A DNA stretch of 21,324 nt, from positions 1 through 21,324 of the forward strand of contig JACRKZ010000132.1 in NCBI GenBank assembly GCA_016235455.1, read 5' to 3'. Under the pieces are notes generated by a model, which worked only from the letters and a program-made list of their open reading frames with translations, had not been told where the DNA came from and did not search any database. Within the stretch, counting starts at the first letter, position 1; each line of letters opens with the position of its first letter. The position numbers were made by a program, and so were the translations under genes. Below are positions 3,527 to 21,192 of this stretch, one piece after another. The stretch is from Armatimonadota bacterium (GTDB lineage Bacteria; Armatimonadota; UBA10988).

Positions 3527-4246
3527 TCAGGCGTCGGTGGCCTGTTCGACGGGCGGCTCGGCGAGGCTGAGGGCGCGGTCGACGTCGGCCTCCTCGCCCG
3601 TCAGATGCGCGAGCGACAGGGCGGTGTCGGGCACATCCACGTAGGTATCGTCTAGCCAGTTGACTCTGCCCTGGCGGCCGACGACCCGGCGAAGTCTGGC
3701 AATGAAGGGTGCCGTGTGCGGCGTGACCGTAATGAACACGCCTCGGCGCCGACCGGTTCTGAACCGCACCTGCTCGGGTCCGCGATAGGTGAGCGCGAAG
3801 TCCTTGACTTCGCTGACCTCGGTCCAGGGCACGGTGCGGCTCCGCCCGATCCGGGCCGCGAGCACCAAGCCATCGGACGCCATGCTCAGCCGCCACGTCG
3901 GCAGCAGGGCGATCTGCGCCATCCGCCCAACGACGCACGCACCGCCCAGGAGTAGCGCAAGCGGCGCGAACAGCCCACGGTCGGGCTCCGGGTCGGCCCA
4001 TCCGACCTCGGCGACTGACACGACGATCACGCAGATCAGCACGCAGACCAGCGCGCAGATGACGCCCAGAAGCGTGCCGACCGACTCGGCGCCTCTGGCC
4101 CATACCCACTGGGCGACTGGCGCAGCCTTGGCACGCTGCCGCTTGACCAGCGGGCGGCGTGGTGCAACCGCCCGCCTGGCGCGCGCGGTCTCGCGCGCGG
4201 CCCGGGTGGTTTCCCTCTGAGCCCTTCGCCGCTCGCGCTTGTTCAT
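3527..4246 (-). CDS. Hypothetical membrane protein (Arg-rich N-terminus, 2 TM helices, possible bacterial PH-like domain)
   Basis: GAGG SD upstream. Two TM-like segments, then RLSMASDGLVLAARIGRSRTVPWTEVSEV, which resembles the 'ipW.eI..v' signature of membrane-flanked PH domains. Same architecture as 675..1388. Confidence 0.75.
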   Translation of the reverse strand: MNKRERRRAQRETTRAARETARARRAVAPRRPLVKRQRAKAAPVAQWVWARGAESVGTLLGVICALVCVLICVIVVSVAEVGWADPEPDRGLFAPLALLLGGACVVGRMAQIALLPTWRLSMASDGLVLAARIGRSRTVPWTEVSEVKDFALTYRGPEQVRFRTGRRRGVFITVTPHTAPFIARLRRVVGRQGRVNWLDDTYVDVPDTALSLAHLTGEEADVDRALSLAEPPVEQATDA

Positions 4247-9056: not shown

Positions 9057-9632
9057 CTACTCGCGTTCGATGGCACAGCCCTCGCCCTGCACTCGGTCGG
9101 GGCTCGGCCGGCGGTTCGCCAGCACGGCCGCGATGGCGTTGCGCAAATAGCGCTTGGCCGGGTCCACGCGTTCGGGCCGGCTGGCGTTGTCGATGGCGCC
9201 CCAGTAGCGCAGCCGCAGGTCGGTGTCGAGCACAAAGGCCTCGGGCGTGGCCACGGCGTGATAGGTGTCGGCCACCTTGTTGTGATGGTCCTTGAGCACG
9301 GTGAAGGTCAGGCTGGCCGCGCGCTGATGAGCGCGGATGGCGTCGGCCGACTCGCCGGCGTTGGAGTTGATGGCGTACAGCACCACGCCCTTGTCGGCGA
9401 ACTCGTTGCGCAGCGCCTGCACGCGCTGCTCGTAGGCGTGGCAGACCGGGCAGTCGGAGCCGAACCAGAGCAACACGACGGCCTTGGCCTTGCCCTTGTG
9501 GTTGCTCAGCCGGTGCAGTGTGCCGCTCAGATCGTACAGCGCGAAGTCGGGTGTCGGCGAGCCCAGGGGCAGTTGCGCGGCGCAAGCCGCGGCCAGGGCC
9601 ATGAGCGCGATCAGCAGAGCGCGAGGGCGCAT
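9057..9632 (-). CDS. Exported thioredoxin-fold redoxin (AhpC/TSA-like, CxxC)
   Basis: Start reassigned to ATG 9632 (GGAGG SD; 1 nt after the upstream stop). Signal peptide, PDFALYDLSG, CPVC, AINSN, TPEAFV, YWGAIDN, C-terminal GCAI. Confidence 0.9.
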   Translation of the reverse strand: MRPRALLIALMALAAACAAQLPLGSPTPDFALYDLSGTLHRLSNHKGKAKAVVLLWFGSDCPVCHAYEQRVQALRNEFADKGVVLYAINSNAGESADAIRAHQRAASLTFTVLKDHHNKVADTYHAVATPEAFVLDTDLRLRYWGAIDNASRPERVDPAKRYLRNAIAAVLANRRPSPDRVQGEGCAIERE

Positions 9633-9633
9633 G

Positions 9634-11664
9634 TCACTTGCCTCCCAGCAGTGCGTCGAGCCGAGCGGCAAGCTGCTCGGCCGGCCAGACGCCTATCTTG
9701 GTCTCAACCACCGCGCCGATGCCGTTGACCACGAACGTGGTTGGCTTGATGCGGATGTCGTACCGCGCGATGAGCGCCTCATCGGGGCTGTCCTCGTCGA
9801 GCGAGACGTCGACGAACGCGATGCGACCAGCGTACTTGGGCCGTAGCTCGGTCACGATGCGGTCCATGGCGCGGCACGGAATGCAGCTGGCCGAGCGGAA
9901 GCTGAGCAGCACCGGCTGCCGGGCGGCCTTGGCGGCGACCAACGCCTGCTCGGCCGCGGTGGGGCCGGTGGTGGCCATGGTCACAACGCGGCGGCTGTAC
10001 CGCAGCCATGACCACATAGGCGCGGTGATGGGCTTGCCGTCGGTGCCGAACGGATCGAGCACGATGGGCGCCTCGAAGAACGGCGAGGCGTCGCCATGGC
10101 AATCGCCGCAGCCGCCAGCGCCCCAGGCCTGTCGGGCCGGCGCCACGTTGTGGCTGAACGTCCAGCGCAAGGGCTGTGCCTGGTCGCTCATCCGCACCCT
10201 CAGCTGGTCACCAACCAACTCGAACTCGCGCCAGCCTTTGACGAAGACCGGGTCGACGGCCGCGAACCGGCCGCCCTCCTGGCTCCTGGTGATGGCCCGC
10301 AGCATCGCGGTGATCTCCGCGGCGGTATTGGCCTCGGGCTTGTCATCGCCGTTGTCGTCGCGTATCTCGGCCTTGGCCAGTTCGAAGGCACGTTTGGTCT
10401 CGGCCAGCGTCAGCGGATGGACCGTGGCGCCCGCTCTGCTGCCCCACCAGGCCGGCAGCAGGGCGTTGCCGCTGTAGAGCTTGCCGTCGGCCAGACGGAA
10501 GTAGCTGGGCTGCCAAGGCGCGCTCTCGCCGTACTTCCGCGCCTGGGGCGAGGTGGGCAAGCCCATAGTGGCACCGGTTGTGGTGTCCACCGTGCCGACC
10601 GCGGCCACCTGGCCGCCGCGCACATGGCAGGTGACGCAGGCGATCTTGTCCAGATGGCCCGCGGGCAAGTCCGGGTGCTTGGGCCGTGGCACGCCGAGCC
10701 GCTTGCTGTGGCAGCCCTGGCAGGAGACGGTGTCGCTGTCGAGGTCGTTGCGCACGCTGACCTCGCTCGTCTGGCCCTTGGCAAACTGATGGTCCGCGCC
10801 CGACGCGTGGCAACTGACACAGCGCAGCCCAGCGGCGGTGTGGACGTCCGCCGTGCGTCCGTCCCAAACGTGGCCACGCTTCTTGGCCTCGGCTTCGGCA
10901 TGGCAGCTCAAGCAGGCGGCATCGGCGGGGCTGCGGACGATGTTCAACGACACCTTGCCGCTGGCCGATCCGTAGGTCAGCTTGGGCTTCTCGCCGGCCA
11001 GCACCGAGCCGTTGACCTGGCCCAGTCCACTGCCCACGGTCGCGGCCCAGCCGTAGTTGGCCCTGGCCAGTTGCGCGTTGCGCGCAGGCATGCTGTAGCC
11101 GGGCAGATGGCAGATGAGGCAGTCGGCTTCGACCACGCCCGATTGGTCCCAGCGGGCCTGGTGGTAGTCACCGTCCAGGCTCTTGGCCAGCGCTGGCTGC
11201 GCCTTCTGGCGGCGGTCGAAGCGTTGGCCGCCGCGGTCGGTCTCGAAAGCGCCGCCGCCCGGGTGGCACCCGCCGCAGCGCGTGCCGAACTCCCAGGCGC
11301 TCACCCCCACCTCGGCCTCGGTGCGGTTACTCTTGGCGGCAATCCACTCGTAGGACATGTGGAATTGCTTGCCGATCTGGCCGGGCGACCAGACCCAGGG
11401 CTTGTCAACGTTTGGCTTGGCCTCGTCGGCGCCCATCTGGAAGTGATAGCCCTGTGTGATCTTGGCGTAGTCGTGGCAGCCGCCGCAGGTCTGCCGGGGA
11501 CTGTAGGGCGCCGGGTCGGCCGCGCCAGGGTGGATGGCGCGGCCGTCGGCGTCCTTGAGCTGCACCGGCGCGTGCGGTCTGGCCACGGGCGCGGCGTCGG
11601 CACCCAGCCAGCCCAACGTTCCTGTCAGCAGGAGCGCGAAGCTGCGCCACCCAACCCTTCGCAT
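9634..11664 (-). CDS. Exported multiheme (8 x CxxCH) cytochrome c with C-terminal thioredoxin domain, about 676 aa
   Basis: Start reassigned to ATG 11664 (GGGAG SD; signal peptide). CxxCH at 11473-87, 11263-77, 11107-21, 10900-14, 10807-21, 10708-22, 10624-38 and 10096-10110. The last ~105 aa are Trx-like, with CIPC and a cis-Pro motif KPTT. Confidence 0.92.
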   Translation of the reverse strand: MRRVGWRSFALLLTGTLGWLGADAAPVARPHAPVQLKDADGRAIHPGAADPAPYSPRQTCGGCHDYAKITQGYHFQMGADEAKPNVDKPWVWSPGQIGKQFHMSYEWIAAKSNRTEAEVGVSAWEFGTRCGGCHPGGGAFETDRGGQRFDRRQKAQPALAKSLDGDYHQARWDQSGVVEADCLICHLPGYSMPARNAQLARANYGWAATVGSGLGQVNGSVLAGEKPKLTYGSASGKVSLNIVRSPADAACLSCHAEAEAKKRGHVWDGRTADVHTAAGLRCVSCHASGADHQFAKGQTSEVSVRNDLDSDTVSCQGCHSKRLGVPRPKHPDLPAGHLDKIACVTCHVRGGQVAAVGTVDTTTGATMGLPTSPQARKYGESAPWQPSYFRLADGKLYSGNALLPAWWGSRAGATVHPLTLAETKRAFELAKAEIRDDNGDDKPEANTAAEITAMLRAITRSQEGGRFAAVDPVFVKGWREFELVGDQLRVRMSDQAQPLRWTFSHNVAPARQAWGAGGCGDCHGDASPFFEAPIVLDPFGTDGKPITAPMWSWLRYSRRVVTMATTGPTAAEQALVAAKAARQPVLLSFRSASCIPCRAMDRIVTELRPKYAGRIAFVDVSLDEDSPDEALIARYDIRIKPTTFVVNGIGAVVETKIGVWPAEQLAARLDALLGGK

Positions 11665-11681
11665 CGTCGTTCTCCCTGGCG

Positions 11682-12062
11682 CTACTCGGCCAGACCCATC
11701 GCCCGACGCGTCGCCGTGACCGTCAAGGCAACTTCCTCGGCCTTCAGATCGAAGTCCCGGTTCTTGGCGACGCCCAGCTCCGTGACCACGATGTAGGTGT
11801 CTGGCTCGCGGCCCGCCTGAGCAGCCAGGCCGGCCTTGACGCAGCCCACCGCGCAACCGTCGATGGCAATCAGGTGCGACGCCTTGCTCGCGCCCGCCAC
11901 CAGCCCGTCAATGCCGGCCGCCACGCCCACAGCGCACTTCATGCGCCCCAGGCCGCCACGCTCCAGCTCGATGCCCGCCTGGTTGGCGATCTGCCCCACG
12001 TTGGAGCCGCCAGAGCAACCCAGAATCAGGACCTGGTCCTGCACCGAACAGCACTCACTCAT
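11682..12062 (-). CDS. DGC domain putative zinc-binding protein
   Basis: CSGGSNVGQIAN, MKCAVGV, IAIDGCAVGCVK; N-terminal CC; GGGGAG SD. Confidence 0.92.
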   Translation of the reverse strand: MSECCSVQDQVLILGCSGGSNVGQIANQAGIELERGGLGRMKCAVGVAAGIDGLVAGASKASHLIAIDGCAVGCVKAGLAAQAGREPDTYIVVTELGVAKNRDFDLKAEEVALTVTATRRAMGLAE

Positions 12063-12077
12063 CTCATCTCCCCATTC

Positions 12078-12767
12078 TCAGTTGGCTAGCACCAAATAGA
12101 ACGCGGTCGCCACCAGCAACCAGCCGCTACCGCGTTGCACTCGCTCCATATGCGGGCCGAGTTGCCTCAGCCGGCCCGCGGCGCCGGCGCACAGGCCCAG
12201 CACCAGCAGTGGCAGGCCATGGCCCACGGCATAGGCGAACAGCAGCATGCCGCCGAACAGCGGATGGCCCTTGGCCGCCGCCGCGGACAGAATGACCGCC
12301 AGGATCGGTGTCGCGCAGGGCGAGGCGATCAGGCCGAACAGCATGCCCAGCAGCAGCGCGGAAACGAAGCTGCCCGCTGCCGGTCGGAAGGCCTTGGTCG
12401 GCCCGATGACCGGCAAGCGCACGTCGATGGCGCCCGCCCAGACCAGGCCGAAGAAGAGACACACGCCGGCCGCCACCAAGCGCCAGGCCGCCGCCGACAG
12501 GCCGAGCAGGCCGCCGGCCGCCGAGAAGACGACGCCGATAGCCGCGTAGACCAGGCCCAGGCCCAGCACGAACGTGGCGGCCAGCGCCGGCGCGTGCCAG
12601 CGCGGACGCTCGCCCTGCGCGCCGATCAGCCCGATAAGCACCGGCACCGTCGGGTAGCTGCACGGGTTGAACCCGGTCAGGCAACCGCCCACAAAGGCCA
12701 GCCCCACGGATAGTACCGACACCTCGACCAGACTGGCGCCGCGCCGCGCGGCAATCTGCTCGAGCAT
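12078..12767 (-). CDS. ccdA: CcdA/DsbD-beta transmembrane disulfide electron transporter
   Basis: Start reassigned to ATG 12767 (TGATG overlap with the upstream stop). About 6 TM segments and two Pro-Cys motifs, GFNPCSYP and ASPCATP. Confidence 0.92.
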   Translation of the reverse strand: MLEQIAARRGASLVEVSVLSVGLAFVGGCLTGFNPCSYPTVPVLIGLIGAQGERPRWHAPALAATFVLGLGLVYAAIGVVFSAAGGLLGLSAAAWRLVAAGVCLFFGLVWAGAIDVRLPVIGPTKAFRPAAGSFVSALLLGMLFGLIASPCATPILAVILSAAAAKGHPLFGGMLLFAYAVGHGLPLLVLGLCAGAAGRLRQLGPHMERVQRGSGWLLVATAFYLVLAN

Positions 12768-13198
12768 CAGCGGCTCACCAGGTCGTCCAGACGCTTGGCC
12801 AGTTCGGCCGCCGGCCACAGGCCGATCTTGGTCTCGGCCAGATCGCCGTTCTTGGTGAGCAGCACCGTCGTCGGCTTGGTGCGGATCTGGTGGGCCTCGA
12901 TCAGCTTGACGTCCGGCGTGCCTTCGTCGAGCGAGACGTCGATGATGGCCACACGATCGCCGTAGCGCGGCCGCAGCTCGGCCAGCACCTGACCCATGGC
13001 CACACACGGCCGGCAGCTGTTGCTGCGGAACGCCAGCACGACGGGTTGCTGCGCGGCCTTGGCCGCCACGATCGCGCGCTCGGCCGGCGTGCCCGCGGAC
13101 GCCGCCGAAGATGAGCCACCGGTAGACATGAGCTGTCTGGCTGCCACCAGCGCCACGAAGGCGACGATGATGCCCACGCCCAGGGCTGACTTCCTCAT
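12767..13198 (-). CDS. Membrane-anchored/exported thioredoxin family protein
   Basis: N-terminal hydrophobic helix, Ser/Ala linker, CRPC active site, KPTT cis-Pro; ATGA overlap with the upstream gene. Confidence 0.92.
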   Translation of the reverse strand: MRKSALGVGIIVAFVALVAARQLMSTGGSSSAASAGTPAERAIVAAKAAQQPVVLAFRSNSCRPCVAMGQVLAELRPRYGDRVAIIDVSLDEGTPDVKLIEAHQIRTKPTTVLLTKNGDLAETKIGLWPAAELAKRLDDLVSR

Positions 13199-13437
13199 GA
13201 CACAGCACCCCTTAGCAGCGTGGCGATCTCGGTCGGCGTGAGCAGCTTGCCCATGCTCTTGACGGCGCCATCGATGGCCAGGGCCGGCGTCATCATCACG
13301 CCCATGGCCACGATCTGCTGGACGTCCTCGATCTTCTCGAGCCGGGCGTCGACGCCGGTCTCGGCGACAGCCTGCGCCGCCGCCTCATGGAGCTTCTTGC
13401 ACTTGGCACAACCGGTGCCCAGGATCTGCACTACCAT
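13195..13437 (-). CDS. Small redox-active disulfide protein 2 (Thioredoxin_3 / MTH895-like), 80 aa
   Basis: Start reassigned to ATG 13437. VQILGTGCAKCKKL ... GVMMTPALAIDG; AGGA SD. Confidence 0.93.
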   Translation of the reverse strand: MVVQILGTGCAKCKKLHEAAAQAVAETGVDARLEKIEDVQQIVAMGVMMTPALAIDGAVKSMGKLLTPTEIATLLRGAVS

Positions 13438-13442
13438 CGGTC

Positions 13443-13892
13443 CTACTCCTGTTCGTTGAGCATCTGCTCGAGGATCTCCGCGGCGGCGCCCACGGCATTG
13501 GGGCAGACGGTGCGGACCAGTCCCAACTCGCGCGCCTTGGCCATCTGCTCGGGGTCGGAGATGTCGTAGCCCAGCAGATCGCGGCAGTCCACCGCGCCGC
13601 AGCGCTGGGCGAAGCACTGGGTGAACTCATGCACCTTGTCGTAGACGTCGCCCTTGTTCCAGGCGCCATCCGTCTGCTTGCCCAAGGCCAGGCCCAGGAT
13701 CAGATAGGCACCGGTCACAGCGCCGCAGGTCTCACCCCGCCGACCCATGCCGGCGCCGAAGCCGATCGCGGCCCGCGCCAGCAGGTCGGCGTCGGCGCCG
13801 ACCCGTCCCGCGTAGGTCATCGCGACCGCCTGCGAACACGACATGCCCGTGGCGAACGCGGCCTGTGCCTTCTCTCCCATCACGCTCCCCAT
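13443..13892 (-). CDS. C_GCAxxG_C_C family putative redox-active protein
   Basis: Start at ATG 13892 (or 13880). Four spaced Cys motifs SCSQAV, GETCGAVTG, VDCRDL and VCPNAV, plus FGAGMG. Confidence 0.92.
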   Translation of the reverse strand: MGSVMGEKAQAAFATGMSCSQAVAMTYAGRVGADADLLARAAIGFGAGMGRRGETCGAVTGAYLILGLALGKQTDGAWNKGDVYDKVHEFTQCFAQRCGAVDCRDLLGYDISDPEQMAKARELGLVRTVCPNAVGAAAEILEQMLNEQE

Positions 13893-13903
13893 GCTCTTTC
13901 TCC

Positions 13904-14953
13904 CTAGACAATGGCGTTGAACAGCCAACCAACCGCCATGATGCCCGCGGCCACCACGCCGAAGAAGGTGGCGATGAGCTGCGGACGTAGCACCCGGCGC
14001 AGAATGATGGCCTCGGGCAGCGACAGCGCGATGACGGCCATCATGAAGGCCAGCACCGTGCCCAACGCCGCGCCCTTGCCCAGCAGCGCCTGCACAATGG
14101 GGATGATGCCCGCAGCGTTGGCGTACATCGGCACGCCCAGCAGTACCGCCAGCGGCACCGACCACCAGGCGTCGCGGCCCATGAACGAAGCCATCAGACC
14201 TTCGGGCACATAGCCGTGGATGCCGGCGCCCACGGCGATGCCGAGCACCACATAGGGCCAGACCTTGCCCACTATCTCGCGCACGGCATCGCGGCCGGCC
14301 TGAGTGCGCTCGGTCCAGGTCATCAGGTCGGGCGACAAGCCCGTCTGACCCGCGCCGACCTGATAGACCCAAGGCTCCACCCAGCGCTCGAGCTTCAGCC
14401 GCCCAATGATCCACCCGGCCACCATGGCGATGAGCAGACCGGTGCTCAGATACAGGGCCGCCACCCGCCAGCCAAACAGGCCGAACAACAGCACCAGCGC
14501 CACTTCGTTGACCATCGGCGCGGCGATGAGGAACGATAGCGTCACACCTAACGGCACGCCGGCCTGCACGAAGCCGAGGAACAGCGGCACGGCCGAGCAG
14601 GAACAGAACGGAGTCACCACGCCCAGCAGCGCCGCCAACACGTTGCCCACGGCTTCGCGCCGACCGGCCAGCAGTGATCGCGTGCGCTCAGCACTGAAAT
14701 AGGACCGCACAATACCGACGCCGTAGACGATGAGCGTCAACAGCATGAGCACCTTGGGCACGTCGTAGCAGAAGAACTCGACCGAGGCGCCCAGGCGGCT
14801 GCCCTGGGCCAGGCCCAGCAGGCCGTAGGTCAGAGCGCGCGACAGCCCGAGCAGATGGTGGTAGAGCAGGTACCAGCCGGCCACACCCAGCACCGCGAGC
14901 AGCGGCCTGATAGCCGCCGATGCCTCGCGCCGCGCCGTCGTCGCCATAGCCAT
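13904..14953 (-). CDS. arsP: ArsP-family permease (DUF318; organoarsenical exporter-like)
   Basis: Start at ATG 14953 (GAGG SD; alternatives 14959 and 14947). FFCYDVPK, TPFCSCSAVP, FLIAAPMVNE, GVPMYANAAG, ALSLPE; multi-TM. Confidence 0.9.
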   Translation of the reverse strand: MAMATTARREASAAIRPLLAVLGVAGWYLLYHHLLGLSRALTYGLLGLAQGSRLGASVEFFCYDVPKVLMLLTLIVYGVGIVRSYFSAERTRSLLAGRREAVGNVLAALLGVVTPFCSCSAVPLFLGFVQAGVPLGVTLSFLIAAPMVNEVALVLLFGLFGWRVAALYLSTGLLIAMVAGWIIGRLKLERWVEPWVYQVGAGQTGLSPDLMTWTERTQAGRDAVREIVGKVWPYVVLGIAVGAGIHGYVPEGLMASFMGRDAWWSVPLAVLLGVPMYANAAGIIPIVQALLGKGAALGTVLAFMMAVIALSLPEAIILRRVLRPQLIATFFGVVAAGIMAVGWLFNAIV

Positions 14954-14972
14954 GCTCATCCCTCTTGCTGGC

Positions 14973-15003
14973 AGTATAGCACATATGCGCAGATGTGCAT
15001 ACT
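14973..15003. promoter_or_regulatory. Palindromic operator (likely ArsR/SmtB type) overlapping an extended -10 promoter for the arsP operon
   Basis: AGTAT-a-GCACAT-a-TGCGCA-g-ATGTGC-ATACT is a near-perfect dyad in an AT-rich patch. The minus strand reads TG-c-TATACT (14981-14973), about 20 nt before the arsP start. Confidence 0.75.
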
Positions 15004-15055
15004 TGGTCAAAGAAAGCCGCGGGCGGGTGCGAGGACGGGCGGTCAGGCGTCGTGC

Positions 15056-15400
15056 TCAGCTGGCGCAGCACCCGCGCAGCAGCGCGGCGGCGGCCTGTTG
15101 CTGGATGATCAGCGGGTCGTCGGCTATCGCGTCGACGGCAGCATCGGCCAGCGCCAGCGTGGCGGGCGGCAGGTCGTCGCGCAGGCAGTAGTCCATGCGC
15201 GCGCCATTGCGGCGGCCCTCGACGAGTCCGGCGCGCCGCAGGATGCCGAGGTTGCGGGAGACCGTGTACTGCGCCAGACCCGTGACCTGCTCCAGCTCGC
15301 AGACGCAGAGGATGCCATGCGCGCGCAGCAGCGCTAGCAGGCGCAGGCGTGGCGGGTCGGCCAGGGCACGCAGCAGGTCTCCGGTTTGGTCGGCGGTCAT
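15056..15400 (-). CDS. arsR: ArsR/SmtB family metalloregulatory repressor, 114 aa
   Basis: Start reassigned to ATG 15400. LRALADPPRLRLL, LCVCEL, VSRNLGILRRAGLV..RR.G...Y; C-terminal GCC. Confidence 0.93.
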   Translation of the reverse strand: MTADQTGDLLRALADPPRLRLLALLRAHGILCVCELEQVTGLAQYTVSRNLGILRRAGLVEGRRNGARMDYCLRDDLPPATLALADAAVDAIADDPLIIQQQAAAALLRGCCAS

Positions 15401-15410
15401 GGCATCTCGC

Positions 15411-16802
15411 TTAGCTGCGACCCAGTGGCCCGACGGGCGCCGTTCGCAGGGTCGCATAGTGCGTATTGTAGAGGGAGTCGTCGCCAATCTCGGCCATCTG
15501 ACGCCACATCTTGCCGCACATGGCTTCGACGGTGACCTGCCAGGCGGGCTCGTCGATCAGATTGCGGCGCTCGTGGGGGTCGTCGGCCAGGTTGTACAGC
15601 TCGTCGATGCCGCCGGGGCTGAAGACATATTTGAGTTGGTCGCACCAGACAATGCGCTGGCTGTAGACGAAACGCTGGCCAAAGAACTCGGCATAGGCTG
15701 CCCGCCGGTCAGGTGACCCGTGCAGCGCCTGAGCGAGGCTGGCGCCGTGGGCGCCGGACAGGGGCTCAACGCCGCACAGATCGAGCAGCGTGGGCCCCAG
15801 GTCGACCAGTGAGCACAGCGTTTCGCCGTCCTCGCCAAACCGCGTCTGGCCAGGCACGCTCAGCACGAGAGGGATGTTGTAGACCTCCTCGTAGGCTGTC
15901 GCCACGCCCTTGGCGGCCAGCCCGTGGGCGCCGAGCATGTCGCCGTGGTCGCTGGTGAACACGACGATGGTGCGGTCGGCCTGGCCGGTCTCCTCGAGCG
16001 CGGCCAGCAGCCGGCCCAACTCGTGGTCCAGCCAGGAGACCGTGGCCCAGTAGCTGGCCCGCACGCGGCGCCAGTCGTCGTCGCACAGCCCGCGCCAGAC
16101 GCGGGCCATGCGGCGCACGACCTCGGGCTTGTCCAAGCAGGCATCCCGCAGGCTGTCCGGCAGCGGCACGGCATCCAGGTCGTAGCGCTCGAGCCACTCG
16201 CGTGGCGGCTTGTAGGGATCGTGTGGTTCGATGGTGCTGACAAAGCAGCACCACGGCTCGGCCTTGCTGGCCGCGGCCCGGACATACCCGATGCCGCGTT
16301 CGAACGCCGGATGGTGGACCGGCCCAGGCCGGTCGTTGATGCCGGCCAGCAGGTAATCGCGATAGCCGGGCGTGCGCACCACCACCTGCCCCTCGGGCGA
16401 AAGTTCGACGGCGGCGCCTTGGCAGCCCGCGTCGTGCTCCTGCCAGCCGAACCGCGCCAGGTCGCCGCTCTGCTCGACATGCCACTTGCCGAAGTAGCCA
16501 GTGCGATAGCCGGCGTCGGCCAGGTTGTGGCTGAAGTACCGGAAGCGGTCCGCCGGCACATCGACCCAGTCGGCGCGCTGGGTATGGGTGCAATCCCACA
16601 TCCCATGCGCCGAGGGATAGAGGCCGGTCATCAGCGAGGCGCGCGCCGGCGAGCAGATGGCGTTGGTGGTATAGCAGCGGCCGAAACGCAGGCCGCGGCG
16701 AGCCAACGCGTCCAGGTGCGGTGTCTGGCAGGGGCTGCCCGGCGCGATGGCAGCCGCATTGGTGTGGTCGGTCATGACAAACAGGATGTTCGGGCGCTCC
16801 AT
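15411..16802 (-). CDS. Cytoplasmic formylglycine-dependent sulfatase (choline-sulfatase-like fold; substrate unknown)
   Basis: ATG 16802 with GGAG SD. RPNILFVMTD, CSPARASLMTG, GKWH, EPHDPY, FTSDHGDMLG, ELYNLADDPHE; no signal peptide. Confidence 0.93.
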   Translation of the reverse strand: MERPNILFVMTDHTNAAAIAPGSPCQTPHLDALARRGLRFGRCYTTNAICSPARASLMTGLYPSAHGMWDCTHTQRADWVDVPADRFRYFSHNLADAGYRTGYFGKWHVEQSGDLARFGWQEHDAGCQGAAVELSPEGQVVVRTPGYRDYLLAGINDRPGPVHHPAFERGIGYVRAAASKAEPWCCFVSTIEPHDPYKPPREWLERYDLDAVPLPDSLRDACLDKPEVVRRMARVWRGLCDDDWRRVRASYWATVSWLDHELGRLLAALEETGQADRTIVVFTSDHGDMLGAHGLAAKGVATAYEEVYNIPLVLSVPGQTRFGEDGETLCSLVDLGPTLLDLCGVEPLSGAHGASLAQALHGSPDRRAAYAEFFGQRFVYSQRIVWCDQLKYVFSPGGIDELYNLADDPHERRNLIDEPAWQVTVEAMCGKMWRQMAEIGDDSLYNTHYATLRTAPVGPLGRS

Positions 16803-16844: not shown

Positions 16845-19010
16845 TCAGTCGCCGGTGGCGGGCGCGAGCACCGGCGCTGGTGGTCGGCGGCGGCGACGGA
16901 TGCCAGACAGCAGCTCGCGAGCCTGGGCCAGTTCGGCCTCGGTGAGCGGCTGCGGCGAGAATCGGCCGCGCGCAACGAGGTCGGCCAGCCGGCGGATGTC
17001 GCGCGCCAGCCAGGGCCGGGCCTCGGCCCAGCGCTGCGCCAGCGCCAGCTCGGTGTCGGCGGGATCTCGAGTCACGCCGGCCCGCCGGGCCGCCCGGACC
17101 ATGGACGCCAGCAGCCTCTCTCCGCGCCGCTCGGCGCGGTTCAGCCGCCGGCGGGCGACATGGGGCCGTGCCTTGACCTGGCGCGCCCTGTAGCGCAGGT
17201 AGAGCGCGATGCCGAGCAGGCCCATCAGCGTCAGGCCGATGGCCAGGGCTTTGCCCAACGGCAGCCTGGCTACGGTGTTGCGCCATGCACTCCGCGCGCG
17301 GTCCATGACCAGGGCCAAGCCGGTCAACTCCTCGACGGCCATGCCGGTCGGGTCGAACTCCACCCAGCCGCGGCCGGGCAGCCAGCACTCCACCCAGGCG
17401 TGCGCGTCCTTGACCTTGACCAGCCACGACCCATCGGGCTGCTGCTCGCCCGAGCTGTAGCCGCTGACGACCCGCGTGGGCACCGCCACGCTGCGCGCGA
17501 GCACCGCGAAGGACGAGGCGAAGTGGCGACACCAGCCCGATTGCATGACCAGCAGGAAGTACTCGACGGCGTCGACGTTGCGCGGCACCGGCTGCGGCCG
17601 TAGCGTGTAGGTCTTGTGGTCGCCGAACCAGGTCATCAGCGCGGCGATCTTCTCTTCATAGGTCGTGCAGCCCTGGGTGATTTGGCGCGCCAGCATGCCA
17701 ACCCGCAGCGAGGTGGTGCGTGAGGTCTGCAGGTAGCGGTCGCGGTCGGCCGGTTTGAGCACGTGCCGGGTGCCTTCAGCGTCCTTGCCCGGCGCCCAGA
17801 CGGTGTAGCTGGTGCCTGGACCCAGGCCGGGCACCGCGCAGACGGTGCCCGCGGTGTTGACGATCAGGCGTGATGTGCCCGTCTGCACATGGCTCGTGCC
17901 GCGCACAGTGTAGATCAGTGTGCCGATGTCCATCAGCCGGTCGAACCGGAAGCGCTGCAGGTGCGCCGTGTCGGCCGGCGCGTCGGGTTTGACCTGGATG
18001 ACGCCGTCGCCCAACGCCTGCAGGTTGTGCAGGGCCTTCTCACCGGTTGGCTTGAAGCGGCGCCCGTCGTACTCGCCGTAGACCGAGCCGCGCCACAGCA
18101 GACCGGCCGGGCCTTGAACGCGGAACACGGGCACTTCGTTGTTCGAGCCGCCAACGTCACCGACTTCCAGGCACGGCTCGGCGCCCTCGGCCAGACGCGA
18201 CGCCGAGTACTGGCCAATCCACTGGGACAGACGCATGGCCAACGGCGCGCCGATGGTCTGCACGAAGGTGCTATGGAGGTGAAGGCCGCTGAGCGACACA
18301 CTGAAGACCACCGCCAGCAGGCCCATGACCGCGCCCAGACGCGCCAGCAACGCGGTGTCCTGGCGCCAGTCGCCCAGTTCGGTGCGACCGGCCACCTGGT
18401 TGGCGGCCGCGAGTTGCTGCCGGCGCCGGACGCGCAAGCGCAGCAGCAGCGATGCGCCGATGAAGGGCAGCAGCGCCGTCACGACGGCCGCGTCGGAGGC
18501 GATGATGCCCAGCAGCACAAACTGACTCAGGCCGAAGCCGATGCACAGTTGCAGATCAAAGTCCGTCAGTAGCGTCATGGCGCGGAAGGCGACGACCCAG
18601 GCGATGAAGCGGATCAGCCAGGCCACGAAGATGCTCTCGCCGCTCATCAGCCGGTCCAGGCTGAGCGTGCCGTGGTTGACCGCAAGCGCCGCCATCAGCC
18701 CGCCGGCCGCCACGGCAGCCAGGGTGACCCAGCCGTTGAGTCGACGCTGATTGGCGCCGCGCCGGCGCAGTGCGAGGCTGATGGGCAGGCCGATCACGCT
18801 GAGCACCAACACGACCACCAGCATCATCGGCTCAACCGCCAGAACGCTCCAGCCGGCGAGCACGGGCGCGATCACCGCCACCGCGGTGGCCACGTACATC
18901 ACCGGGTCGGCCGGGCCAACATCGCGTCGCCAGGCGGCACGGGTCTCGGCCATCTCCCGGCGGCGCGCCTCGGCCGCCTGCCGCTTCTGTTCGCGGGTGC
19001 GTCGTCTCAT
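16845..19010 (-). CDS. Membrane-bound transglutaminase-like protein (TgpA / DUF3488-type)
   Basis: Start reassigned to ATG 19010 (GGAGG SD; ATGA overlap). N-terminal TM bundle; Cys-His-Asp triad motifs GWCRHFAS, PTRVVSGY, AHAWVE and WVEFDPT; C-terminal TM. Confidence 0.92.
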   Translation of the reverse strand: MRRRTREQKRQAAEARRREMAETRAAWRRDVGPADPVMYVATAVAVIAPVLAGWSVLAVEPMMLVVVLVLSVIGLPISLALRRRGANQRRLNGWVTLAAVAAGGLMAALAVNHGTLSLDRLMSGESIFVAWLIRFIAWVVAFRAMTLLTDFDLQLCIGFGLSQFVLLGIIASDAAVVTALLPFIGASLLLRLRVRRRQQLAAANQVAGRTELGDWRQDTALLARLGAVMGLLAVVFSVSLSGLHLHSTFVQTIGAPLAMRLSQWIGQYSASRLAEGAEPCLEVGDVGGSNNEVPVFRVQGPAGLLWRGSVYGEYDGRRFKPTGEKALHNLQALGDGVIQVKPDAPADTAHLQRFRFDRLMDIGTLIYTVRGTSHVQTGTSRLIVNTAGTVCAVPGLGPGTSYTVWAPGKDAEGTRHVLKPADRDRYLQTSRTTSLRVGMLARQITQGCTTYEEKIAALMTWFGDHKTYTLRPQPVPRNVDAVEYFLLVMQSGWCRHFASSFAVLARSVAVPTRVVSGYSSGEQQPDGSWLVKVKDAHAWVECWLPGRGWVEFDPTGMAVEELTGLALVMDRARSAWRNTVARLPLGKALAIGLTLMGLLGIALYLRYRARQVKARPHVARRRLNRAERRGERLLASMVRAARRAGVTRDPADTELALAQRWAEARPWLARDIRRLADLVARGRFSPQPLTEAELAQARELLSGIRRRRRPPAPVLAPATGD

Positions 19011-20251
19011 GCCGCCACCTCCCGCGGATCGAGCACCGCCGTGAGGCTGGCCCCCGGCTGCAGCACGCTCAACGCCACACCACTGCCGGCCAACCGAGCG
19101 CGCACCGCCTGCGGCGTGAGGAGACTGTCCGGCACGGGCTTGGCGTCGGCCGCGGCATAGGCGCGCGCGTCGGGCAGGATCAGCCACACGCCCCGACCCA
19201 GCTCGCCCAGCCGCCGCAGGTCGGCCAGCAGCGTCGCGTCGGCACCTGCCGAGATGACCACCAGCGCCGCTCCCGGACCCACCCGGTCGGCCTGCTGGGA
19301 GAGCAGCGCCGGCATCGACACCGCGCCATCGCCCCGCATCAGCGCCAGCGCGTCGAGCAGGTCGCGGTTGAGGCCGCGCCCGCCGTACGTGGCGAAGTCG
19401 AGGGCCTGCTCCTCGTGGGCCGCCAGCCGCGCCGGCCGGCCCTGCTCCGACAGCCAGGCCATGACCGAGGCCGCCGAGCTGACCGCCGCCTCCAGCGAAC
19501 TGCCGGGCCCAGCGCCAAACACCTGGCGTGCATCGAGATCAAGCAGGACGACGCCCTCGGCGGCGCTGGGCCGTTCGTACTCCTTGGTCATCAGCCGGCC
19601 GGTGCGGGCCGAGGCCAACCAGTGGACATGGCGCAGATCGTCCCCGGGCTGATACTCGCGCAGGCTGTGCAGGACCAGGCCGGACGCGGCGGTGCCCCGC
19701 CGGCCATCGTCCAGGCCGGTGCGACCCAGCGCCAGGTGGGCCGCGAGCGGCTCCACGCGCGGGTGCACCAGCACCTCCTGCCGCGTGTCGACCAGGTCAC
19801 GCGTCACCTCGAACAGGCCCAGCGGGTCGCCGACGGTCACCTGCACCGGCCCCAGCACGGTGCGTCCGCGCACCGCCGGCGGCGCTTCGGCCTCGACAGC
19901 CACCTCGGACTCGCCCGACAGAAGGGGCACGAGCACGCTGCGCTCGGCATGCACCCGCAGCGCCGCGTTGGCGTGTCGGTCATGCAGCATGAGGCCCGAC
20001 TTGGGTATCGAGCCCAGGTTGCGCACATCGAACCCGAGGCTCAGCGGCTGACCCACCACCAGCCGGTCGGGCAGCGCGCGGCGCCGCACCTCCAGGCCGT
20101 GCGCGCCAAACCGCGCCAGCGCATAGCAGACGACCAGCAGACTCATGGTCATCCAGGCCAGCACATAGAGCGCCAGGCGGTCATTGGCCGCGGCCACCAG
20201 ATAGAGGAAGCCGCTGGTGACGACCAGCATCCTGATCCCACGTCGCCGCAT
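19007..20251 (-). CDS. DUF58 domain protein
   Basis: N-terminal TM pair, DPLGLF, LVHPR, LREYQPGDDLRHVHWLASARTGRLMTKEYE, VLLD; directly downstream of moxR. Confidence 0.93.
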   Translation of the reverse strand: MRRRGIRMLVVTSGFLYLVAAANDRLALYVLAWMTMSLLVVCYALARFGAHGLEVRRRALPDRLVVGQPLSLGFDVRNLGSIPKSGLMLHDRHANAALRVHAERSVLVPLLSGESEVAVEAEAPPAVRGRTVLGPVQVTVGDPLGLFEVTRDLVDTRQEVLVHPRVEPLAAHLALGRTGLDDGRRGTAASGLVLHSLREYQPGDDLRHVHWLASARTGRLMTKEYERPSAAEGVVLLDLDARQVFGAGPGSSLEAAVSSAASVMAWLSEQGRPARLAAHEEQALDFATYGGRGLNRDLLDALALMRGDGAVSMPALLSQQADRVGPGAALVVISAGADATLLADLRRLGELGRGVWLILPDARAYAAADAKPVPDSLLTPQAVRARLAGSGVALSVLQPGASLTAVLDPREVAA

Positions 20252-20259
20252 GGCTCACC

Positions 20260-21192
20260 TCACGGTGCCGGCGTGCGCGCCAGCAGATCGCGGACAATGG
20301 CCTCGGCGCCGCCGCTGGTACCGCGGGCCGCGGCGTGAAGCGACAGGCGATGGGCCAGCACGGCCGGCGCCAGCTCCTGGACATCGTCGGGCCGCACGTA
20401 GTCGCGACCGTCGATGAGCGACAGCGTCTTGGCGGCGGTGCTCAGGGCCAGCGCGGCGCGCGGGCTGGCACCCAGGCGCACGCGCTCGTCGCGCCGTGTC
20501 GCCTCGATCAGGTCGAGCAGATAGTCGTCGATGCGCTGGTCACAATGCACCTGACCCACCTGCTGCTGGCACTCGGTGACGGTGGCCAGGTCGACCACCG
20601 GCTCGATGCCGGCCAGCGGGTCGGCGGCGGGATCGCGCCGCAGCAGCGTGCGCTCGTGCTCGCGGCCGGGATAGCCCAGGTGCAGCCGCATCATGAAGCG
20701 GTCGAGCTGCGACTCGGGCAGCGGGTAGACCCCTTCGAATTCCACGGGGTTCTGCGTGGCCATGACCAGGAACGGCCGCGCCACCTGATGCGCCTCGCCG
20801 TCGACGGTGACCGTCTCCTCCTCCATGCACTCCAGCAGCGCCGACTGAGTCTTGGGTGAGGCCCGGTTGATCTCATCGGCCAGCAGCACGTTGCAGAAGA
20901 CCGGGCCAGGCCGGAACCGAAAGGCGCCCGTGGCCGGCTCATAGAGCGTGACGCCAGTCACATCGGCGGGCAGCAGGTCGGGGGTGAACTGGATGCGCCG
21001 CGAGCTGCCACCCAGGCTCTTGGCCAGCGCGCGAGCCAGCATGGTCTTGCCCACGCCGGGCACATCCTCCAGCAGCACATGCCCGCCACCGATCAGCGCC
21101 ACCACCGTGTGCCGGACGACCGTGCGCTTCCCGAACACCACCCGCTCCACCGTCTCCACCAAGCGGTCAGCAACCACCTTTGCGTCGACCAT
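20260..21192 (-). CDS. moxR: MoxR family AAA+ ATPase
   Basis: Walker A EDVPGVGKT, RIQFTPDLLPADVTG, Walker B LLADEINRA, ATQNP, LPESQLDRF, GASPR. Confidence 0.96.
   Translation of the reverse strand: MVDAKVVADRLVETVERVVFGKRTVVRHTVVALIGGGHVLLEDVPGVGKTMLARALAKSLGGSSRRIQFTPDLLPADVTGVTLYEPATGAFRFRPGPVFCNVLLADEINRASPKTQSALLECMEEETVTVDGEAHQVARPFLVMATQNPVEFEGVYPLPESQLDRFMMRLHLGYPGREHERTLLRRDPAADPLAGIEPVVDLATVTECQQQVGQVHCDQRIDDYLLDLIEATRRDERVRLGASPRAALALSTAAKTLSLIDGRDYVRPDDVQELAPAVLAHRLSLHAAARGTSGGAEAIVRDLLARTPAP

Follow-up and report, generated by a model that had tools for sequence, protein, structure and literature searches.

An octaheme cytochrome with the OTR fold as an addition to a known ars gene core in an Armatimonadota bacterium: a candidate arsenical redox enzyme

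In the 21,324-nucleotide (nt) stretch of contig JACRKZ010000132.1 from an Armatimonadota bacterium (hereafter the window), nine genes on the minus strand at positions 9057-15400 begin with arsR and arsP and include a gene for an octaheme c-type cytochrome fused to a thioredoxin. ArsR, ArsP, an ArsE-type redoxin, a thioredoxin, CcdA and a DGC-domain protein form an already described ars-operon set. The octaheme cytochrome is the addition to this known core, an undescribed accessory enzyme with the fold of octaheme tetrathionate reductase (OTR) of Shewanella oneidensis. Tentatively, and short of calling it probable, we read the cluster as an ArsR-controlled organoarsenical-resistance operon in which the cytochrome would be an accessory, arsenical-oxidizing enzyme of the periplasm.

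The cytochrome gene (9634..11664) encodes 676 amino acids (aa) with eight CXXCH heme motifs. A heme domain with the OTR fold spans approximately residues 28-560 and is followed by a CIPC thioredoxin domain at approximately residues 569-676 (positions 9634-9960). The domain-only model, built on 130 sequences, reached a predicted local distance difference test (pLDDT) score of 94 and a predicted template modeling (pTM) score of 0.92. With this model, Foldseek returned OTR (1SP3) with an E value of 1.9e-7 as the sole match under 0.001, and VIA-align placed it on 1SP3 with Z 13.9 and a root-mean-square deviation of 4.0 over 322 aligned residues (22% identity), the next row having Z 3.6. Moreover, a profile search matched 1SP3 with an E value of 2.6e-11. 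The domain-only model replaced a first model of the whole protein, from a 37-row alignment, which had a pLDDT of 71 and a pTM of 0.49 and for which the fold search gave thioredoxins alone. On TIGR04315, the OTR family model, the window protein scores 30.9 bits against a cut-off of 375, whereas 588 bits are reached by a canonical OTR of this phylum; no curated family covers the cytochrome. A single-sequence search of the PDB with the heme domain gave nothing meaningful, and in the ESM Atlas only generically named multiheme clusters matched. The N-terminal sequence, which falls below the hydropathy threshold used, suggests that the cytochrome is exported.

In OTR, seven hemes are bis-His-ligated, and the catalytic heme 2 has a Lys ligand and a nearby Cys (bioRxiv 2023.04.20.537704). 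Similarly, seven histidines outside the heme motifs of the window protein (31, 74, 275, 292, 330, 337, 505) are invariant in its own clade, here called the His-Met clade, so one of the eight hemes would lack a distal His, as in OTR (bioRxiv 2023.04.20.537704); these heme ligands are predicted from the alignment. The heme 2 motif is kept in 41/41 His-Met rows. A lysine, K111, lies 19 residues before this motif, comparable to K109 at 18 residues in the OTR-type locus L098. K111 is present in all 41 His-Met rows and in 115 of the 116 rows that keep heme 2, but in only 4/14 rows without it, and is a candidate Lys ligand of heme 2; in hhalign comparisons with three canonical OTRs only hemes 4-7 were aligned, and the K111 region fell outside the alignment. 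K111 closes a putative active-site loop (11332..11361, minus strand) that opens with H102-M103, directly after the site occupied by selenocysteine (Sec) or Cys in relatives. M103 is found in 41/41 and H102 in 40/41 His-Met rows, and the Sec/Cys column, Phe101 in the window, is without Cys in all 41. An extra histidine, H265 (10870..10872, minus strand), lies in a KKRGH segment that aligns with the VKHGD segment of OTR, and is His in 41/41 His-Met rows and 0/89 others. All 16 Cys of the heme domain sit in CXXCH motifs, and the active-site Cys of OTR is not present.

The cytochrome belongs to a wide family (365 representatives at E 1e-30), in which named homologs are mostly from Armatimonadota and an FdnI-type cytochrome b forms the end of many proteins. 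A FastTree tree of 138 rows separates the His-Met clade (41 rows, window included) from 33 rows that form a WCSP Cys-type clade, from a clade in which heme 2 is missing, and from lineages that carry an in-frame TGA. Beyond Armatimonadota, the cultured Desulfobacca acetoxidans carries a member of the Cys-type clade (WP_013705083.1). The TGA falls at one loop position (27 TGA versus 1 TAA among stops in the matches), Cys replaces it in other relatives, and a hairpin, assessed without a shuffle control, follows it in most of the 19 relatives folded, so that the TGA-bearing proteins look like selenoproteins. Those of L036-L094 (for example L037:9908-12418 and L063:1955-3796), P0066 and P0115, which carry the TGA and the downstream hairpin and are split or labeled 'formate dehydrogenase gamma subunit' in databases, are probable selenoprotein fusions of octaheme cytochrome and cytochrome b. 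A table in a selenoproteome review holds one TIGR04315-named selenoprotein (PMC13188914).

In the His-Met clade, the Sec/Cys site is occupied by F, I, Q, H or Y and followed by H102 and M103. SelA was not found in the window's 93% complete genome but is present in 4/4 other carriers tested; for this reason we rejected a loss of Sec for lack of machinery, and the exchange of Sec/Cys for H102, M103 and H265 looks selected. Free thiols, like selenols, are prone to poisoning by As(III). We consider it possible, although not yet an even chance, that the His-Met clade is a heme-only arsenical oxidoreductase remodeled from a Sec/Cys sulfur-redox ancestor. In the periplasm, it would act on what ArsP has exported, would draw on thioredoxin for the lost thiols, and would give anaerobes a route for (organo)arsenic redox change free of molybdenum and oxygen. 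The His-Met and Cys-type clades, both ars-linked, are not sisters in either of two trees; they may have been recruited once or twice, as a single clade was not rejected (p 0.27) in an approximately unbiased test on 31 rows chosen from 130, with the rows lacking heme 2 and the outgroups left out.

Two further features were observed. The column of H31 (11572-11574) holds His in 41/41 His-Met rows, Cys in 28/28 WCSP rows and Cys in 8/19 Sec rows, which may mark an exchange between His and Cys as heme ligand like that of MccSep-type sites. The clade without heme 2 (rows of L054, L062, L068, L081, L086, L087, L091 and P0147-P0186) is also mostly without K111; it parallels MmcA and may be a bacterial electron conduit.

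To describe the gene context, neighbors were counted within 8 kb on each side, window included, in loci flanked by 5 kb or more and after removal of duplicates. Left out were loci that repeated a contig or protein (L002, L017, L025, L119-L125), copies of the window itself and the OTR-type loci L096-L101, as well as 6 His-Met, 12 Sec-type and 18 other loci with less than 5 kb of flank. ArsP, Acr3, ArsC or ArsM lies near the cytochrome in 16/22 His-Met loci, or 19/22 if a split ArsP-like permease is counted too; 16 is the strict figure because L020, L117 and L118 rest solely on the split permease, whose Pfam score is just under the cut-off. In L018, L024 and L027, these four families and the split permease are all lacking nearby. 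Such genes lie near 4/5 Cys-type, 0/15 Sec-type and 0/19 other loci, a contrast that is descriptive and not a statistic, since genera recur and ars-linked loci supplied the queries. The cytochrome's most constant partner is full-length ArsP (15 of the 22 His-Met loci); ArsR and ArsE are each found in 15, DGC and a CIPC-type thioredoxin each in 11, CcdA and an O/P-type porin each in 10, Acr3 and ArsC each in 8, a nitroreductase in 5, a redoxin in 4 and ArsM in 2. Neighbors exceed the curated cut-offs for Acr3 and arsenite methyltransferase. Gene order is highly variable, and only L012 nearly matches the window order (50-61% identity). The idea of a conserved nine-gene system was rejected, as the C_GCAxxG_C_C protein (1/28 His-Met loci, the window itself) and the redoxin are local to few loci. 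Cytochrome homologs nevertheless co-occur with arsP and other ars clusters in several gene orders, an association on which the original prediction had staked itself.

Individual loci show additional arrangements. The L012 cassette (L012:1-12549) stands beside a TtrA-like molybdenum enzyme, a porin, moeA and mobA, and may reflect transfer or mis-binning because only 1/401 genomes of that phylum's sample matched. In L004 (11722-12387), L005, L007, L008, L011 and L026, the cytochrome adjoins a SagB-like nitroreductase whose N-terminus has a hydrophobic segment; this nitroreductase was not found in the window's genome with the query used. A gene for an O/P-like porin directly adjoins the cytochrome gene, often overlapping it, in L006 (5593-6678), L014, L016, L018, L020, L022-L025, L029 and L115-L118, possibly as a porin-cytochrome pair. 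The split ArsP-like permease consists of two short membrane genes directly before the cytochrome in L006 (2897-3888), L010, L020, L023, L117 and L118, and DUF169 and DUF6951 recur in these clusters. A TAA interrupts the cytochrome of L011 (11060-12817), and L117 (8247-8879) holds a C-terminal fragment alone; these apparently broken copies show that the module can decay.

The original prediction described the cytochrome as wired to a thiol relay and took this to suggest an extracytoplasmic redox conversion coupled to efflux. The fused thioredoxin domain is 58% identical to the operon's own anchored thioredoxin. The fusion occurs in 4/47 proteins of the His-Met clade (the window and P0002-4), and the Cys-type protein P0068 joins an N-terminal CIPC thioredoxin of the other ars subtype to the cytochrome and a cytochrome b. 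Thioredoxin has become fused on two occasions, once at either end and each time from another ars-type subfamily, which speaks for functional contact between the two partners. In contrast, CcdA and the CIPC-type thioredoxin accompany only about half of the His-Met loci, and with every heme-domain Cys in a CXXCH motif, the holo-cytochrome itself would be incapable of dithiol exchange. The wiring thus holds in part. The proposed conversion is in keeping with an enzyme fold that has a catalytic heme 2 and with the ars linkage, while its tie to the relay is weaker than was claimed.

In the mechanism that we favor, ArsP would export a trivalent (organo)arsenical, which the cytochrome would take up at heme 2, an open heme probably ligated by Lys, and oxidize to a less toxic pentavalent form, and electrons would run along the seven bis-His hemes to periplasmic acceptors. 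CcdA would keep the dithiols of periplasmic thioredoxins reduced, and these dithiols would bind As(III) and pass the arsenical to the cytochrome where fused or present. The oxyanion would exit via a porin where one exists, for which the phosphate-selective O/P-type porin adjacent in 10/22 loci is plausible. The cytochrome would be an oxygen- and molybdenum-independent counterpart of ArsH. The gene context favors arsenic over selenium or sulfur as the substrate; the substrate itself, the direction of the reaction and the carrier role of thioredoxin are guesses. Several points weigh against this mechanism. MmcA spans -100 to -450 mV and OTR is described as similar, a low range that favors reduction (bioRxiv 2023.04.20.537704). 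OTR is known as a reductase, and CcdA delivers electrons outward. The operon encodes no acceptor for the cytochrome's electrons, and a search of the window's genome for an O/P porin found none. Six of the 22 His-Met loci have no strict ars gene nearby, and the counts overstate independence because several loci come from the same genera. The ars link does not depend on the His-Met swap, given that the Cys-type clade shows it too with another active-site loop. Finally, the cytochrome is absent from approximately 90% of the ArsE-bearing genomes searched.

The known direction of OTR, which reduces tetrathionate, nitrite and hydroxylamine (bioRxiv 2023.04.20.537704), fits better with a close alternative, one that we regard as somewhat unlikely, in which the cytochrome would be a periplasmic reductase fed by CcdA and thioredoxin and acting on As(V), on a thioarsenical (by cleaving As-S, much as the S-S bond of tetrathionate is cleaved) or on the N-O group of an arylarsenical. 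CcdA and thioredoxin could replace the electron source, since an FdnI-type cytochrome b, to which many of the relatives are fused, is missing from the His-Met clade; the SagB-like nitroreductase follows the cytochrome in 5/22 loci. ArsE and ArsF, moreover, reportedly reduce nitro-arsenicals. However, CcdA is near fewer than half of the His-Met cytochromes, P0068 has both thioredoxin and cytochrome b, so that thioredoxin is no simple substitute, and no free Cys could couple dithiols to hemes. As(III) made outside the membrane is not obviously protective, and nitro-arsenicals are synthetic and recent, whereas the clade has diverged to 50-60% identity. An improbable alternative is that the cytochrome performs sulfur or disulfide redox chemistry for envelope thiol homeostasis under arsenic stress and leaves arsenic untouched. 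The in-frame TGA of relatives, the Cys at that site and the hairpin resemble MccSep, a Sec/heme polysulfide reductase (PMC13510729), and the L012 cassette adjoins its TtrA-like enzyme; yet the His-Met clade has lost the Sec or Cys needed for such chemistry. Each His-Met genome has a single cytochrome match, with three candidates scored per genome, which leaves no Sec paralogue to back it up, and neither rhodanese nor YeeE was among the 66 neighbors scanned.

It is decidedly improbable, in our estimate, that CcdA, thioredoxin and redoxin just protect heme attachment, by keeping apo-CXXCH clear of disulfides or As(III), and that the cytochrome, as a component of electron transfer or of a porin-cytochrome unit, travels with the island. 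In textbooks, the thio-reduction arm of cytochrome c maturation consists of CcdA and ResA- or CcmG-like partners, the operon's exported redoxin weakly matches ResA (E 3e-14, under the cut-off), and a passenger would agree with a porin after the cytochrome in 10/22 loci and with a patchy distribution (0/5 genomes of the same family). Nevertheless, a separate DsbD of 614 aa is encoded on C151 and a CcmF/NrfE-type heme lyase elsewhere (PF01578 matches on C147 and C184, not C90), and the genome has 26 reading frames with at least three CXXCH motifs. There is no heme lyase in the cluster, and a maturation operon was rejected as its main role. The ArsE/thioredoxin/CcdA set is also found in ars operons without a cytochrome (PMC2963123 and our genome survey). 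Conservation of heme 2 and K111 sets the cytochrome apart from the electron conduit MmcA, and the ars linkage survives gene-order shuffling in two clades. Finally, a soft metal or metalloid other than arsenic (Sb, Hg, Cu/Zn, Se) is very unlikely as inducer and substrate. Neither PF03773 permeases nor CVC-type ArsR/SmtB regulators are specific for arsenic, the window permease matches the models for SaoE and the Cu/Zn exporter SO_0444, both below cut-off, and a chromate transporter or RND pump lies near some loci. Against this stand the Acr3, ArsC and ArsM genes of the other loci (8/22, 8/22 and 2/22), the Cys pattern of the window ArsR, which is that of the genome's acr3 regulator, and the upregulation by arsenic of the arsR-arsP-arsE-DGC operon of P. 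mercurii ND132 (bioRxiv 2022.10.17.512643).

The layout of the operon agrees with the original prediction in order, coordinates, strand, gaps and family matches: arsR, an operator and eight packed co-oriented genes, with the motifs CAKC, CRPC, CPVC and CIPC in the expected products. The arsR gene (15056..15400) encodes 114 aa with CVC (C32, C34) and a C-terminal CC (C111, C112), and matches HTH_5 and NF033788 (76 bits, cut-off 55). The arsP-family permease (13904..14959; 351 aa) has a CSC at 119-121 and eight transmembrane-like segments and matches ArsP_1/PF03773 with 240 bits (cut-off 32). It is followed by a C_GCAxxG_C_C family protein (13443..13892; PF09719, TIGR01909), an MTH895/ArsE-family small redoxin with CAKC (13195..13437; TIGR00412 with 100 bits, cut-off 62; PF13192), in which a signal segment is absent, and a membrane-anchored CRPC thioredoxin (12767..13198; PF00085) with an N-terminal transmembrane-like segment. 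CcdA (12078..12767; PF02683/DsbD_TM) is the DsbD transmembrane domain alone and keeps both Pro-Cys motifs (C36, C151), as judged from an alignment of 8 ars-linked CcdAs. A DGC-domain protein (11682..12062; PF08859) precedes the cytochrome, and the last gene encodes an AhpC/TSA-type redoxin (9057..9632; PF00578) with CPVC and a third Cys near the C-terminus; its N-terminal hydrophobic segment suggests export, and it shares 58% identity with its positional counterpart in L012. The gaps from arsP onward are 11, 5, -4, -1, 15, 17 and 1 nt, and the genes are probably co-transcribed; no sigma-70 promoter was found, and terminators were no commoner than in shuffled sequence. Among the 19 open reading frames (ORFs) of the window scanned, the predicted lack of ArsC, Acr3, ArsM, ArsH and molybdopterin families was borne out.

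The 96-nt spacer between arsR and arsP holds an imperfect palindrome (14979..15002), found by inverted-repeat search, to which ArsR would bind. Its 14979-14998 stretch is the single such site genome-wide at ≤3 mismatches, and L012 carries a similar sequence at the matching position. At the sequence level, an ArsR with Cys sensor motifs and an operator, both traits of ars operons, are present, as are the ArsP, ArsE, thioredoxin and CcdA families jointly. The window ArsR and that encoded ahead of acr3 on C175 share an identical pattern of CVC and C-terminal CC. The arsR-arsM spacer on C145 (G000:C145:18250-18400) has a 10-nt half-site in common with the window operator; cross-regulation is possible, and so is a chance match. 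The start of arsR lies 10 nt past the stop of the upstream sulfatase gene (15400-15411), and the operator is downstream of arsR, not before it; the arsR of L012 likewise comes after an unrelated gene.

The operon is flanked by unrelated sulfatase genes. Elsewhere in the window, two membrane-type ORFs without a Pfam match and with similar C-termini (675-1388 and 3527-4246) flank aminotransferase and amidohydrolase genes, and 16845-21192 holds an ordinary trio of MoxR ATPase, DUF58 and transglutaminase-like genes. No plasmid match was found.

Beyond the window, the genome carries arsR-acr3 on C175 and arsR-arsM on C145. An Arr- or Aio-type enzyme was not found in it, in agreement with the prediction of a system without a molybdenum enzyme; its three molybdopterin-family ORFs are NuoG/HoxU/Fdh-like. 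With three candidates scored per genome, the cytochrome occurs in 16/401 genomes of the phylum, all 16 among the 153 with an ArsE-family gene. Because it is present in 16/153 ArsE-bearing genomes and in none of the five of the same family, the cytochrome is accessory.

To our knowledge, every enzyme described for arsenic redox change is a molybdoenzyme, a thiol enzyme or an oxygen-dependent flavoprotein. If our favored reading is true, a multiheme arsenic redox enzyme would be new chemistry, overlooked by present marker-gene surveys, and would hint at arsenic redox change outside the cytoplasm without molybdenum or oxygen. It would also suggest a possible purpose for the CcdA and thioredoxin genes of ars operons. 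Its range is limited to those 16 genomes in 401 of one uncultured-rich phylum and to the single match in the sample of L012's phylum. The native role of OTR has been called cryptic (bioRxiv 2023.04.20.537704), and the ars link offers a testable substrate class for an enzyme of this fold.

Among known ars systems, ArsP is said to be a methylarsenite permease, and ArsEFG of Shewanella putrefaciens 200 reportedly combines nitro-arsenical reduction with efflux and is not known to include a cytochrome; by NCBIfam name, it has an ArsE-family redoxin in common with the window, and ArsF and ArsG are presumably counterparts of the thioredoxin and CcdA-like genes. ArsH is reportedly an organoarsenical oxidase; it is cytoplasmic and flavin/O2-dependent, and Aio/Arx and Arr are molybdoenzymes. 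With these the cytochrome has only the proposed role, an arsenical redox change, in common, and no sequence or fold relation to them was found. In section 3.9 of PMC2963123, CcdA along with thioredoxin plus redox-active disulfide protein 2 are described ars determinants; ArsC is present in 7/8 of the cases there, and the transmembrane role of the CcdA/thioredoxin genes is left open. Such operons have ArsR, ArsP, ArsE/TIGR00412, thioredoxin, CcdA and DGC in one cluster, as the window does, whereas the window has no ArsC and adds the octaheme-thioredoxin fusion, the C_GCAxxG_C_C protein and the exported redoxin; the PMC2963123 passages on ars operons make no mention of any cytochrome. By analogy with the arsR-arsP-arsE-DGC operon of ND132, the window operon would be induced by arsenic (bioRxiv 2022.10.17.512643). 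As to the relay, then, the cluster is not the new system that had been proposed (PMC2963123; bioRxiv 2022.10.17.512643). Our literature search, which mostly did not cover subscription journals and did not extend to supplements, found no paper that ties an octaheme cytochrome to ars operons.

Among known cytochromes, MccSep/ExtKL of Geobacter sulfurreducens has Sec/Cys near a heme, as is suggested for the TGA-containing relatives, but it is pentaheme (PMC13510729), and the window heme domain is without Sec or free Cys; the model NF040886 gave no match for the window protein or the relatives scanned. MmcA of Methanosarcina, an OTR-related multiheme protein like the cytochrome, is a conduit without heme 2 and its Lys (bioRxiv 2023.04.20.537704), whereas the window cytochrome keeps heme 2 and K111. 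Relatives of the cytochrome match the MmcA model TIGR04314 weakly, and the window protein had no row at E 0.01. With OTR (1SP3, TIGR04315), the window protein shares the whole-domain fold, eight CXXCH motifs, seven spare His and a kept heme 2, and its conserved Lys upstream of heme 2 may correspond to that of OTR. In contrast, OTR has an active-site Cys (NNFC in L098, L099 and L101) that the window protein is without, and H102-M103, H265, the thioredoxin fusion and the ars context are the window protein's own.

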